A model generated the notes under the pieces. That model was not told the DNA's origin. It did not search any database and was given only the letters and a program-made list of their open reading frames with translations. The position numbers and the translations under genes were made by a program. From the NCBI GenBank assembly GCA_051887355.1, contig JBJEZK010000007.1, positions 3,497-67,496 of the forward strand: a DNA stretch of 64,000 nt, written 5' to 3'. Below, piece after piece: positions 28,229-31,538 of the stretch (its first letter is position 1; each line of letters begins with the position of its first letter). Source of the stretch: Acutalibacteraceae bacterium. GTDB lineage: Bacteria > Bacillota > Clostridia > Oscillospirales > Acutalibacteraceae.

Positions 28229-30715
28229 TTATTTTTGGGAATTCAATAGTTTCTTTATTTTTTTGAAGTCAATATTTCCTTCTGTTGTGCTTTCACCTTT
28301 ATACAACCAGCCGTTTTCCGTTAACATTTTTTCAACGGAACCTGCTGGAACTGTTGCTTTAGTCATATCCATAGTCATTGCTTGTTTTAAATGGTTAAAG
28401 TAGTAGTTTCCACTAATTACTTCCCCTAAACATTTTGATAAGTGTTCAAATTTCTTCTTGTCGCCTTTAATATCTTCTTTTATTTTTTCCAACATTTCAG
28501 TACATTTGTTTCTCAGAGTAGTTTCGTTTGGCTGTGTATTTCCAAATTCCTTTAAAAAGTCTCTATAGTCTTGTAATTCTTTATCAGTAGTTGTAAAGCG
28601 CTCTTTCGTACCACTATAGGGATCGATTGTTGCATTATGTTTTATACATATATAAGCTCGCAGATAAGCTCTGGTATATTGGAACATTTTTTTCAATGAA
28701 CTATTGTCGCCATCGAGATCCTTTGATTTTTTGTCATGTTTATAATCTTTTTCTTTGCCATAAAAATATTCTTTGTTAAGGTCATTGATGGTGTTTTCAT
28801 CGTCTATTCCCAGGCTTTTCATATAATCTGTGTTGTTTTCTTTTTGATATAATTTTCGAAGATTATACAGATTAAAATCACCTTCAGGAGCTGAGCATAA
28901 AATTAAATTTTTAATATCTTTTTTGCTGTAGGATGATTTATCGCTGTCTTCTGGTTCCTCATTGTCTTCTGATTCCTCATTGTCTTCTGGTTCCTCATTG
29001 TCTTCTGGCATGTATTTATATAAATCCATTAAAGCTTCTCCGATTTTTTGCAAGAAATCAGATTGGTACATTCTACCAATTAATACTCTAGACAAATCTG
29101 ACCATTTAGGCTCTTCAATTTTCTCAGTTGTATCATCATTTCCTGCAGGTATACCTTCCGATTCAGTTGGATCACCGTCTTTTCCTTGTTCATCTTTGGA
29201 ACTTTCATTGGGTTTTGTTGAAGGCTCTTGGCTATCACCGCTATTTTTGTTATCCGGAGGGTGAGATTCTGAAGGTTCTGAAGATTCGGAAATGATTGCA
29301 GAGCTGAGTTTATTTTTAAAATCTCCTGTTGAAATGTTAAAATTATATAAGCTTGTTTTATTAATGGAATCAAAATTTTCCTTATATTTTTCTAAATCAT
29401 CACTTTTGACACTTTTGTCATTTTCGTCATAAAGAGTGAATTTCTCACATAGCGATTGGAAAATATCTTGCTGTTTTTGTATGAATTCCTTTTTTAGTTC
29501 TTCGTGTTTGAGACGCAACTCATCTTCATAGTGCTGAATGATTTTATTTTTTATGGTACCGTTTTTATCGGTATTATCTGTTGAGAGTTTTTTACTTACA
29601 TCAGCAGTCTGATTGTTAAACTCGTTTATTAGTTCACTTAGGTTATAGGCAAGCGTTGGGCCGAATGGGATGTTGGCGCCGTTGTTTTCTATTTTTTGGG
29701 TATCTTTTCCGGTTTCTATTGTGTTCTGACTTTTTGTTGTTGTTGCTACGTTATCTGATGAAGTATTTGTATCTGTATTAGAGGCAATATTGGAATTTGA
29801 ACCGCTTGTTGTGCTGCTTGCAGGATTTTTTTTGTTTTCGTCAGCAGGATAAGCTGTGGTAGGATATAAAATTCCTGACTCACCGATGATTTCATTGTTT
29901 ACTGTAACCAAAAAACTCTTGTTTTCAGGGATATCGATCAAGATGCCAAATCTTCTAAGTTTGTCTATATCGGCACGACATAATTTATCAATTTCCCCTT
30001 GTTTTTCTTCAAATTTTGCGTCATACTCTTCCTGCAATTTTTTGAGGTTGTCAATTAATTCGCTCACGTTTACTTTTTTGGGGGGACTTTCAGATGAATT
30101 ATTGGATGAACTTTTGGCGTTATCATTTACTGGAGATAATTCGGAAGTTGAATCTTCTTCGGTACCTATATTCTGCGTGGACTCTTCTTTTTTTTGCTGA
30201 ACTATTTGATTTTTAATGTACTTGATCATATTTTCGCTATTTGGTTTGTTTTGGACAGTTGCGTCTTTTTTGTCGTTTTCTGATTTCATTGATTTCCCTA
30301 TAATTGGTTCTTTTATATCTTTATTATTATTCAGGTAGTTCCAATATTTTTCTCCATGATCTTTTTCTGCGTATTGAAGATTGTATCCTACGCCTCCTAA
30401 TACAAGTTTATCTGATTTTGTGGTTGGTTTAATTTTTTTAGCAGTAAACTCTATATTTTTTTTAAATTTTTTAAATTTTTCCGGAGTTGAAAAATTATCT
30501 TCAACTAGTGTAGGGTCGTAATTAGTATTATCTTCAGAATTTAAGTCAATCCCCAATTTTCCTATTTTACGCTGATGATTGCCTATTTCATTAAAAATTT
30601 TTTTGTCAAATTTTCGGAATGACTTAGAAGTTTTTTCGAATTCATTTTTAATATTTTTAATTATTTTCTTCTCATCGTTTTTGTCGTTATCAAAAGTTGG
30701 AATACTACTCATCAT
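28229..30715 (-). CDS. Orphan 828-aa protein, highly charged with low-complexity linkers; no recognised domain
   Basis: Uninterrupted ORF with an AAGGGGGAA RBS 26 nt after the upstream gene's stop. No TM segment or signal peptide. K/E/D/N/S-rich. S/T/N-rich tracts at about aa 178-212 and 296-335, an acidic tract at about aa 476-533, and PEDNEE repeats at aa 569-592. Confidence 0.75.
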   Translation of the reverse strand: MMSSIPTFDNDKNDEKKIIKNIKNEFEKTSKSFRKFDKKIFNEIGNHQRKIGKLGIDLNSEDNTNYDPTLVEDNFSTPEKFKKFKKNIEFTAKKIKPTTKSDKLVLGGVGYNLQYAEKDHGEKYWNYLNNNKDIKEPIIGKSMKSENDKKDATVQNKPNSENMIKYIKNQIVQQKKEESTQNIGTEEDSTSELSPVNDNAKSSSNNSSESPPKKVNVSELIDNLKKLQEEYDAKFEEKQGEIDKLCRADIDKLRRFGILIDIPENKSFLVTVNNEIIGESGILYPTTAYPADENKKNPASSTTSGSNSNIASNTDTNTSSDNVATTTKSQNTIETGKDTQKIENNGANIPFGPTLAYNLSELINEFNNQTADVSKKLSTDNTDKNGTIKNKIIQHYEDELRLKHEELKKEFIQKQQDIFQSLCEKFTLYDENDKSVKSDDLEKYKENFDSINKTSLYNFNISTGDFKNKLSSAIISESSEPSESHPPDNKNSGDSQEPSTKPNESSKDEQGKDGDPTESEGIPAGNDDTTEKIEEPKWSDLSRVLIGRMYQSDFLQKIGEALMDLYKYMPEDNEEPEDNEESEDNEEPEDSDKSSYSKKDIKNLILCSAPEGDFNLYNLRKLYQKENNTDYMKSLGIDDENTINDLNKEYFYGKEKDYKHDKKSKDLDGDNSSLKKMFQYTRAYLRAYICIKHNATIDPYSGTKERFTTTDKELQDYRDFLKEFGNTQPNETTLRNKCTEMLEKIKEDIKGDKKKFEHLSKCLGEVISGNYYFNHLKQAMTMDMTKATVPAGSVEKMLTENGWLYKGESTTEGNIDFKKIKKLLNSQK
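28941..29008. repeat. 18-bp in-frame tandem repeat (3 full copies plus 1 partial) encoding PEDNEE units
   Basis: The unit TTCCTCATTGTCTTCTGG is repeated head-to-tail on the plus strand with a single substitution. Confidence 0.9.
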
Positions 30716-30741
30716 ATTATGTTTTCCCCCTTATCATATCG

Positions 30742-31425
30742 TTATCTCTTGGCAAGTCCTGCACCTAATAGAGCAGTGTTACTTATCTTGCTCATAGTTT
30801 CGTAGCCTTTGAGTTTGGCTCGGAGTTTGCCTTTGATCCCATTAGGATCGTTCGCTTCTTCTCGTATAGTTATACTTACTTCGGCTTTCAGTGGTTGCCC
30901 CCAAGAAGAAAACGCACGATATGTTGGACTTAGAATTTCTATAACTCCATAAAATTCAAAGTTGCTTCCCCACTTAAACATTACATGTGGTAAACTAGAG
31001 CTCCTGGAAAAATCCACTAATTTTTTCAGGGATGAGTATTCACTGTTTTCTAAATGAAAATCACTCATAGATCCCAAAAATCCACTCATTGATCTTGCAT
31101 TATACTCGTCATAAAAATCATAATACAGAGTCATAGAAAGCGAGCTACTTTCATCGTGAGATGAGTACGATTCAAGAGATGGCTGATCGAAGTTTGTTAT
31201 TCCCACTATAGGAGTTTTAACGGGAGCTGAATGCTGTAACACTAAATCACTGGGATTGATTTGTACAGGAATAACTTCGCATCCAGAAAAACTACCATCT
31301 GGTTCTAAATTTGCTATTGTGAAAGTCGCTTTCTCAACTACGCTGTAATCATTTAAAACTCCGGTGCGATAAGAATTACCAAAAAGAGAACTTCCGAGCC
31401 CTGCTACCATAGATTTTAATCCCAT
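30742..31425 (-). CDS. 227-aa protein with contractile-injection-system / phage tail-tube-like motifs (CIS_tube-like, tentative)
   Basis: 'ATFTIANLEPDG...VIPVQINPSDLVLQHS', 'LSMTLYYDFYD' and 'LPHVMFKWGSNFEFYGVIEILSPTYRAFSSWGQPLKAEVSITIRE' follow the pattern I recall for the tube-fold N-domain of LysM-associated eCIS / tail tube-initiator proteins. No LysM domain, TM segment or signal peptide. Confidence 0.5.
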   Translation of the reverse strand: MGLKSMVAGLGSSLFGNSYRTGVLNDYSVVEKATFTIANLEPDGSFSGCEVIPVQINPSDLVLQHSAPVKTPIVGITNFDQPSLESYSSHDESSSLSMTLYYDFYDEYNARSMSGFLGSMSDFHLENSEYSSLKKLVDFSRSSSLPHVMFKWGSNFEFYGVIEILSPTYRAFSSWGQPLKAEVSITIREEANDPNGIKGKLRAKLKGYETMSKISNTALLGAGLAKR

Positions 31426-31509
31426 AAAATCAACCCTTTACGTATTTATATTTAATATAATCATAAGTTTTTTGTTAATTAACTTATTATTATAAATTTT
31501 TCACATATT

Positions 31510-31538
31510 ATTATACTCGCTCACTTTTATCGTGTCAA
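31510..31538 (-). promoter_or_regulatory. Perfect consensus sigma-A promoter of the 227-aa/828-aa operon
   Basis: Minus strand reads TTGACA, 17 nt spacer, TATAAT, about 85 nt upstream of the ATG at 31425. Confidence 0.75.

Follow-up and report, generated by a model that had tools for sequence, protein, structure and literature searches.

Tail-tube initiators of contractile machines are the closest described relatives of the system analyzed here. In extracellular contractile injection systems (eCIS) these are the Afp7/Pvc7/Cis7 proteins, which carry a tube-fold N-terminal domain and a C-terminal LysM domain, and in phage T4 they are gp48 and gp54; the usual task of an initiator is to hold the tape measure and to start polymerization of the tube. 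To our knowledge, the known domestications of phage tails, including type VI secretion systems (T6SSs), tailocins, eCIS, metamorphosis-associated contractile structures (MACs) and the thylakoid-anchored and Streptomyces contractile injection systems (CIS), all retain the whole contractile apparatus. Here we describe a two-gene operon in a 64,000-nucleotide (nt) stretch of contig JBJEZK010000007.1 (hereafter the window, meaning that whole stretch), in which a gene for a 227-amino-acid (aa) protein assigned to the initiator family, which we call the ring protein, is followed by a gene for an 828-aa, mostly disordered partner. The 227-aa protein is annotated in a metagenome-assembled genome (MAG) of the family Acutalibacteraceae. 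The operon is laid out as follows:

30742-31425, minus strand: open reading frame (ORF) of the 227-aa ring protein, from the ORF list and its translation
28229-30715, minus strand: ORF of the 828-aa partner, from the ORF list and its translation
31510-31538, minus strand: consensus sigma-A/sigma-70-type promoter of the operon, TTGACA-17-TATAAT, with a 12/12 match
31426-31509, minus strand: 5' leader, which contains a conserved A/T-rich element, AATATGTGAAAAATTTATAATAATAA, and the ribosome-binding site (RBS) of the ring gene, AAAGGG, from the sequence and the alignment of relatives
30716-30741, minus strand: 26-nt intergenic spacer with the Shine-Dalgarno sequence AAGGGGGA 8 nt before the ATG of the partner
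28179-28204, minus strand: intrinsic terminator, an 11-bp GC-rich hairpin followed by U7 that closes the operon ahead of feoA, from a hairpin scan

The perfect promoter and the two ORFs separated by a short gap with a strong RBS are as an earlier note on this DNA had described them. The same note correctly reported a GC-rich terminator before feoA but placed it a few bases away, at 28174-28200.

The family assignment of the ring protein draws on several searches. It scored above the gathering threshold of the Pfam family CIS_tube (PF19266; 42.5 bits, threshold 27; E = 7e-11, aa 49-193), and its close homologues all bear CIS_tube as a precomputed domain. When a profile built from 21 ring-protein homologues was searched against the PDB, the best match was the LysM protein of the Salmonella salamae eCIS (9RCE_H, E = 4e-10; 9RCE belongs to the structure paper on that system), followed in order by the AlgoCIS LysM protein Cis7 (7AEB_M), Pvc7 (6J0N_b), the Streptomyces CIS LysM protein (9GTP), Anabaena All3321 (7B5H_AK), the tube initiator of cyanophage A-1(L) (8KEA_P) and Afp7 (6RAO_G). 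The AlphaFold2 model has a whole-chain mean predicted local distance difference test (pLDDT) of 66, with values of 77-87 in the blocks of the beta-core and disorder in the N-terminal 27 residues (pLDDT <50), the loop at 71-90 and the last 16 residues. Its top eight Foldseek matches in the PDB were the same Cis7/Pvc7/Afp7/tube-initiator chains as in the profile search (E = 1e-6 to 6e-4, probability 1.0, template-modeling score ~0.4, identity 14-19%); ordinary tube proteins and Dit/hub proteins ranked only lower in the list. In a viral structure library, Foldseek returned myophage proteins labeled 'CIS tube protein N-terminal domain' and gp48. Pfam gave no match to an Hcp family, and the structural neighbors are initiators; a hit to Phage_P2_GpU (E = 0.016) fell below the cut-off and was not used.

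Based on profile and predicted-fold similarity, the ring protein is a member of the CIS_tube/tube-initiator family (Afp7/Pvc7/Cis7, T4 gp48/gp54 class). The earlier note had matched the protein to a motif pattern of LysM-associated tube-fold initiators, and because the Pfam, PDB-profile, Foldseek and viral structure matches agree, that assignment proved correct: its three quoted blocks are all in the 227-aa protein, where they coincide with the best-conserved stretches of the family, and the similarity to tube-family folds is significant in both profile and structure searches.

Within this family, the protein departs from its canonical members at both ends. We divided it into three parts:

31339-31425, minus strand: N-terminal extension, aa 1-29, a G/A/K/S-rich arm ending in YRTGVLNDYS (pLDDT <50)
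30847-31338, minus strand: tube-fold beta-barrel core, aa 30-193 (AlphaFold2 pLDDT 77-87 except in loops 71-90 and 115-130)
30745-30837, minus strand: C-terminal helix, aa ~197-227, ending in LLGAGLAKR and standing in place of LysM (helix in the AlphaFold2 model)

The conserved blocks of the core (PVQINP, LYYDFYDEY and FKWG..FYGVI...Y.AFS.WGQPLKA) contain columns that are invariant in the family alignments, and Pfam found no LysM in the 227-aa protein. Compared with Afp7/Pvc7/Cis7 (6RAO_G, 6J0N_b, 7AEB_M, 7B5H_AK, 9GTP, 9QGL and 9RCE_H), the protein shares the CIS_tube family, the predicted fold of a ~160-aa N-domain, a length of ~225 aa and the motif order (F/Q)xNP, LxLxFD, FxWG..F.G....Y..F...G.P.(R/K)A. 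It differs in lacking LysM, in its C-terminal helix with a conserved ALR ending and in its N-arm YRTxVLNDFS and QINP and YD(I/F)YDEY blocks, and its identity to these chains is low. The likeness to T4 gp48/gp54 and other myophage initiators extends to the tube-fold initiator class and to significant Foldseek matches (A-1(L) 8KEA_P/R, phiCD508, pyocin R2 baseplate chains and Bacillus phages SP-15 and BCD7), but those proteins are virion components encoded in tail modules, whereas the ring gene is chromosomal and vertically inherited and had no relative on the viral contigs scanned.

An exhaustive profile search of 1.84 billion representatives yielded 1327 relatives, 57 of them at E <=1e-30. We surveyed 169 ring-protein sequences, comprising the best 150 of the 1327 relatives plus the hits of another homologue search, and ~115 of the 169 (~115 clusters at 50% identity) share a subfamily signature: the N-arm YR(T)xV(L)NDFS, QINP in place of the canonical FNP, YD(I/F)YDEY, F.WG..F.G....Y.AFS.WG.PLKA and a C-terminal ALR/xR. 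The N-arm motif is kept across the subfamily and absent from canonical initiators. None of the ~115 members has a LysM pattern, compared with ten canonical hits that do; the weaker hits are canonical (FNP, LYFD, YTMFS..G.PVRA), with LysM or tandem CIS_tube duplications. The terminal arginine is invariant in a 33-sequence alignment, and 87 of 96 sequences bearing the DEY motif have an arginine within their last four residues. Judged by these features, the ring protein is best filed as a distinct, LysM-less, exapted subfamily of a known protein family.

To place the ring gene in its genomic surroundings, we scanned the window and 47 fetched loci (683 kb) in six frames with hidden Markov models (HMMs); for locus retrieval, the 33-sequence alignment was too diverse for pattern design and a 13-sequence set worked. 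Exactly one tube-fold ORF was present per locus. Unlike the genes of Afp7/Pvc7/Cis7, the ring gene had no gene for a sheath, tube, spike or baseplate beside it in any examined locus, with none of these within ±10 kb in the 47 loci. Among the ORFs of the window and of annotated syntenic contigs, Pfam detected no sheath, tube, baseplate, spike, AAA+ ATPase, integrase or phage family at E <=0.001, no T6SS genes are present in the window, and a pattern and tblastn scan of IMG/VR viral contigs found no relative of the ring protein. GC content is uniform across the window (0.30-0.37), with no compositional anomaly. Set against a CIS, the ring locus therefore has none of the parts expected at the level of a system (sheath, tube, baseplate wedge, spike, tape measure, terminator, AAA+ ATPase), and the operon belongs neither to a contractile injection system nor to a prophage locus. 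The orphan status claimed in the earlier note extends to the syntenic relatives, and in the examined loci no homologue of the pair was embedded in a complete phage-tail or eCIS locus. Neither protein matched a PADLOC defense model, and a defense-system hypothesis was dropped in view of this null result.

The ring gene is accompanied instead by its partner. A scan of reference genomes identified 23 loci, all from uncultured Clostridia/Eubacteriales/Oscillospiraceae MAGs and from Candidatus Improbicoccus devescovinae, and in close relatives the gene downstream of the ring gene is without exception a 657-1065-aa ORF that lacks any Pfam domain and starts 14-33 nt further on. After dereplication, 23 of 27 informative lineages had a 600-1400-aa polar ORF 6-76 nt downstream, which is also the range of ring-partner spacers in related loci; some of these ORFs are cut by a contig end, and the counts rest on our own dereplication and ORF calls on draft contigs. 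The pair occurs in at least six neighborhoods: Wal-like/feoAB, TLC (upstream in L029 and L030), gatB with an M16 peptidase (L040), ylbF and ychF with pst and ligA (L042), prsW (upstream in L046) and a recombinase-adjacent site (L044). Because it persists in wholly different neighborhoods, the pair, and not the Wal-like operon, is the conserved unit. At the last of these sites, fragments of a large serine recombinase (Recombinase, Zn_ribbon_recom, DUF4368) lie just downstream of a very divergent pair (L044:4816-5792, minus strand) and are the only hint of a mobile context in the family.

The carriers include one organism with a well-described genome. Candidatus Improbicoccus devescovinae NkDv07, which lives as an obligate endosymbiont in a termite-gut protist, has a 1.08-Mb genome with 790 coding sequences (CDSs) and belongs to an Acutalibacteraceae 'small genome clade' (0.86-1.4 Mb, 30-39% GC) whose hosts include termites, ruminants and humans and which is defined by acquisition of an ATP/ADP translocase (PMC10579323). 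The pair is intact in this genome as NkDv07_0516 (ring, 259 aa) and NkDv07_0517 (partner, 1378 aa). The TLC ATP/ADP translocase, a hallmark of this 'energy-parasite' clade, adjoins the ring gene in three loci (upstream at L029:3395-4804 and L030:383-1759, downstream at L032:5210-6721), an adjacency that may be a coincidence or a hint of shared origin or function.

Signals for co-transcription (the consensus promoter, short RBS-bearing spacers and the terminator) can be read from the DNA. The exact TTGACA-17-TATAAT string occurs three times in 64 kb, compared to 0.02 expected from shuffles, and since only two other perfect copies exist in the window, the ring/partner promoter is by sequence in its strongest promoter class. 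Its two hexamers and their spacing are kept in seven related loci (including L002, L012, L020, L021, L009 and L014), and in the alignment of related loci this conservation reaches relatives with only 33-43% protein identity. The terminator folds with a dG of -14.8 kcal/mol (z = -2.56). Ring and partner form a functional, vertically inherited two-gene operon, which is transcribed strongly and probably constitutively. The AATATGTGAAAAATTTATAATAATAA element (31484-31509, minus strand), directly 3' of the -10 box, includes a second TATAAT-like box and is conserved at the same low protein identities; its role may be that of an operator, of a further promoter or of an element in the leader.

Selection was estimated from closely related strains (dS 0.02-0.09). 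The ratio of nonsynonymous to synonymous rates (ω) was 0-0.34 for the ring gene, indicating purifying selection, with controls of 0.03-0.07 for feoB and 0 for the response regulator, and 0.40-0.80 overall for the partner. The partner differs in length between strains by in-frame indels (988-1024 aa), and along it constrained windows (pN/pS 0-0.4 or free of substitutions) alternate with unconstrained ones (~1 or higher), which hold most of the indels and are P/T/S-rich or acidic-rich. Its C-terminal region has few substitutions in close relatives, except in one linker window and at the extreme C-terminus. Selection also acts on the partner, because its frame of 2.5-4 kb stays open in DNA of 30-38% GC, for example over ~3 kb at a genomic GC content of 33%.

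These data bear on the idea that the pair is a non-functional remnant of a decayed prophage or CIS next to a spurious junk ORF. That only a single tail-derived gene is left, and that the partner is domain-less and of low-complexity composition, would fit such decay. The low ω of the ring gene and an open partner frame with constrained blocks contradict it, as do the conserved promoter, RBS and terminator, the uniform composition with no mobile genes nearby and the retention of the pair across lineages with <30% identity and, intact, in the 790-CDS genome, where the prophage head genes have become pseudogenes. We regard a remnant as extremely improbable, in agreement with the earlier note, which had treated the pair as a working module.

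We next consider the partner. Its composition is polar (63% K/E/D/N/S/T/G) and net acidic, and 85% of its 30-aa windows fall on the disordered side of a charge-hydropathy plot. Neither it nor the ring protein has a transmembrane segment or signal peptide, with a maximum 19-aa hydropathy of 0.65 in the partner. Searches with the partner sequence and with the profile of its family gave no significant match in Pfam, PHROGs, NCBIfam, PADLOC or the PDB, and ten divergent partners of other lineages had no Pfam domain; a Pfam hit to APG6_N (E = 0.037) was below the cut-off and was not used. Three regions stand out:

29954-30067, minus strand: helix, aa 217-254, in a conserved block (AlphaFold2 pLDDT ~67-74)
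29441-29575, minus strand: helix, aa 381-425, block IIxHYxxxL...F..Q..IF (AlphaFold2 pLDDT ~64-70)
28232-28936, minus strand: C-terminal region, aa 594-828, the most conserved part, to which BLAST alignments between genera are mainly confined

The C-terminal region holds motifs with invariant columns (NLYNLR..QKE, F.YTRA.LRAYI and WLY.GE), and an alignment of a genus-level group reveals further conserved blocks (YNL.YAEKDHG..YWNYL, SLYNFNIS and GR.YQS.FL). The partner is a mosaic of conserved, probably helical blocks and hypervariable low-complexity linkers, so the earlier description of a giant disordered protein holds for most of its length but not uniformly. A possible internal repeat between the two helices was weak and inconsistent (z = 0.6-3.9) and is not claimed. 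A word-indexed homologue search with the partner gave one full-length match and one fragment, a low yield because low-complexity words swamp the prefilter.

The reading that we favor, and that may well be correct although we hold it tentatively, is a ring that acts as a hub docking the long disordered partner, independently of contraction. The 227-aa protein would still be able to assemble, as its ancestors did, into a hexameric beta-barrel ring, having exchanged LysM, which binds baseplate or peptidoglycan, for a C-terminal helix with an invariant terminal arginine and having gained an N-terminal arm; these new termini would substitute for the baseplate contacts. The ring could then serve as an oligomerization hub for the conserved helical modules of the partner, most probably its C-terminal ~230 aa, in loose analogy to the way tail initiators grip the end of the tape-measure protein. 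Because the ring would dock these modules, six long flexible chains with hypervariable linkers would be displayed multivalently. Since neither protein has an export signal, the complex would most likely act in the cytoplasm or on the inner side of the envelope, where it would provide structure or a scaffold with no need for sheath contraction.

Several observations weigh against a docking hub. We infer ring formation and partner binding from homology and gene linkage only. The partners fall into at least six sequence clusters whose cross-homology was undetectable by iterative HMM and profile-profile searches (the sole near-link, between clusters A and B, had a hhalign E of ~1e-3 and a probability of 21%), and because partners of different genera share no detectable homology, a conserved docking module is not demonstrated. 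The AlphaFold2 model of the partner, built from a 3-sequence alignment, has a mean pLDDT of 37, with 662 of 828 residues <50 and helix as the only secondary structure. Three or four lineages carry a ring gene that lacks an adjacent partner, namely L023, L032 and L036 and the ambiguous L038/L039; an alternative genetic code or frameshift rescuing a partner in the first three was rejected, and they are truly without one because all three stop types are dense in every frame. The tail-gene negatives cover the window and the fetched loci, and sheath or tube genes may lie elsewhere in the genome of the organism from which the window comes. Finally, the high ω, in-frame strain indels and P/T/S-rich linkers of the partner equally fit an exposed or host-facing protein.

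That last point leads to a different view, in which the ring is an orphan-Hcp-like chaperone or export adaptor and the partner a diversifying effector or surface protein at a host or competitor interface. A tube-fold gene followed by a variable gene is the arrangement of orphan hcp-effector pairs of T6SSs, in which a ring could likewise chaperone its large partner. The partner evolves very fast, with homology between genera undetectable, some partners contain long linkers rich in P/T/S, as is typical of proteins that span the wall or lie outside the cell, and the carriers are members of a host-associated clade that combines small genomes with ATP/ADP translocases, in three loci next to the ring gene. 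Unlike an hcp-effector pair, however, the locus encodes an initiator-like rather than an Hcp-like fold in Gram-positive, ~1-Mb Clostridia carriers, no T6SS or other machine is evident, and the partner has no toxin domain. Export is further disfavored by the missing signal peptides and transmembrane segments and by the lack of any secretion ATPase, sheath or membrane complex near the loci. The conserved blocks of the partner are under purifying selection, fast evolution of disordered linkers occurs in any compartment, and the promoter and location are of housekeeping type. We consider a carrier with its cargo unlikely.

The pair could also be one half of a dispersed tail, with an initiator and a tape-measure-like protein nucleating a tube or particle from genes elsewhere, as in a split CIS, a tailocin or a particle resembling a gene transfer agent. 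The general role of initiators in binding tape measures and starting tubes speaks for this, as does the partner, which like a tape measure is long (657-1378 aa) and, in the low-confidence model, helical where structured. A long, fast-evolving protein, helical or in the case of the partner predicted to be so, is likewise linked to an initiator or LysM tail protein in T4 (gp29 with gp48/gp54) and in PBSX (XkdO, then the LysM protein XkdP), the latter in the reverse of the ring-partner order. Yet the partner has no similarity to tape-measure families by sequence or profile (PHROGs, Pfam, PDB), and its length varies between strains through disordered linkers, a polymorphism that a length ruler should not tolerate. 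The LysM contact to the baseplate is lost, and neither a second tube-fold gene nor any other tail gene was found in the 683 kb around the 47 loci.

Published data on the small genome clade bear on the same possibility in both directions. In its favor, the gains of the clade ancestor include a 'phage tail protein' (OG0002469), a gp6 connector and a head protease, as well as hypothetical proteins that AlphaFold could not fold (PMC10579323); these may or may not correspond to the ring gene and its partner. Against it, the supplement of that study never mentions sheath, baseplate or tape measure, and the NkDv07 phage head genes (portal and capsid) are listed as pseudogenes (PMC10579323). Overall, a dispersed tail or tailocin seems quite unlikely.

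A last alternative comes from the neighboring operon:

31641-35179, plus strand: divergent operon of a lipoprotein gene, a WalR-like regulator gene, a WalK-like kinase gene and prmC (NCBIfam), listed apart from the module

The lipoprotein has 170 aa, a lipobox (LSGC) and no known domain. The best NCBIfam model of the regulator is YycF (226 bits against a cut-off of 340) and that of the kinase is WalK (213 against 725), while PrmC scores above its cut-off. The layout parallels the walA-walR-walK-truA2 operon of Clostridioides difficile (PMC9210968) in its lipoprotein, OmpR-type regulator, PAS-less HAMP kinase and terminal translation-related modification gene, but differs in that the regulator and kinase of the window score below the equivalog cut-offs. 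This operon accompanies the pair in ~16 lineages, not in all. The pair might on this basis be an envelope homeostasis factor, descended from a peptidoglycan-binding tail protein and either under the control of the adjacent WalRK-like system or acting alongside it; the LysM in the ancestors of the ring protein and the prsW gene upstream of the pair in another lineage would agree. However, LysM has been lost, neither protein carries an export signal, and no WalR box was matched in the shared intergenic region, the whole window having fewer matches than shuffles. In at least five other contexts the pair occurs without this operon, so the link may reflect nothing more than synteny, and we judge an envelope role of this kind very unlikely.

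The remainder of the window contains housekeeping genes, as identified with Pfam and syntenic contigs: ABC transporters, cmk, ispH, amidase, ferritin, the spoIIIA operon, yabP/yqfD, ybeY, era, recO, feoAB, dapAB, asd, tgt, queA, rpsB, tsf, der, plsY, typA, signal peptidases and teichoic-acid-type genes. The spoIIIA operon (AA, AB, AC/AD, AE, AF, possibly AG, and AH) looks complete and, together with yabP/yqfD, occupies 9980-14938 and 20845-22390 on the plus strand; the host keeps these endospore-formation genes though in or near a reduced-genome clade. For four ORFs of 173-385 aa, Pfam gave no family at E <=0.001 (19629-20786 and 7763-8284, minus strand; 49154-50248 and 56252-57055, plus strand). 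The two other perfect promoters lie on the plus strand at 22462-22490, upstream of an ORF at 22735 in the ybeY region, and at 44174-44202, upstream of der (engA) at 44479. Downstream of the operon, the true form of feoA is the 79-aa gene with its ATG at 28111 behind GAAGGAGA, starting beyond the terminator, as it is also annotated on the identical contig; the program-made 109-aa GTG ORF (27872-28201, minus strand) overlaps the upstream terminator.

Some related loci have features of their own. L038:1-480 and L039:1-480 are contigs of one Bacillota MAG (OH_SDB_98) with near-identical truncated ring genes and different downstream genes, which reflect either a duplication or a strain-level assembly fork. 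At L023:10809-18836 (minus strand), the partner-less ring gene is followed by a 1438-aa ORF and then by repeated small immunity-like ORFs (MYYLSKKEEKIIDDFYGYVHIDKEH), and the locus also holds repeated fragments resembling toxin C-termini (GKIHYGNRGAHIVPTYPE); the region looks like a polymorphic-toxin locus with orphan cassettes.

Literature searches on stand-alone Cis7/Afp7/Pvc7/gp48 genes, PF19266/CIS_tube and domesticated tail-tube genes in Clostridia found nothing relevant, and the database names of the pair proteins are all 'hypothetical protein'. The impression in the earlier note that the pairing is undescribed thus still stands: for the module of ring and partner, as delimited here from sequence, we found no described counterpart. 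The retained lone initiator-derived gene with its disordered partner suggests that part of a phage tail has been put to a cellular use not described before. A bolder version, possible but somewhat doubtful, is a two-protein machine, in which an initiator ring was captured at or near the origin of the ATP-scavenging small-genome Acutalibacteraceae, stripped of LysM and, with no sheath, tube or baseplate, made the hub of a giant disordered protein. Such a machine would be important enough to survive reduction to ~790 genes, and could for example be a cytoskeletal or organizing structure of a new kind or a minimal conduit that passes a host-facing protein without contracting.

None of the carriers is in culture; the module itself is directly testable by experiment and, if the reading of a docking hub is true, would offer a small and tractable system for studying a ring combined with a disordered protein. 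It provides a first structural clue for two conserved 'hypothetical proteins' of a clade of Clostridia that is associated with guts and protists and is poorly understood. In these ~1-Mb genomes, a lone baseplate-proximal ring protein has apparently been kept, under purifying selection, together with a giant disordered protein unrelated to it; should the ring function without contraction, parts of phage tails would be exaptable piece by piece for cellular roles.

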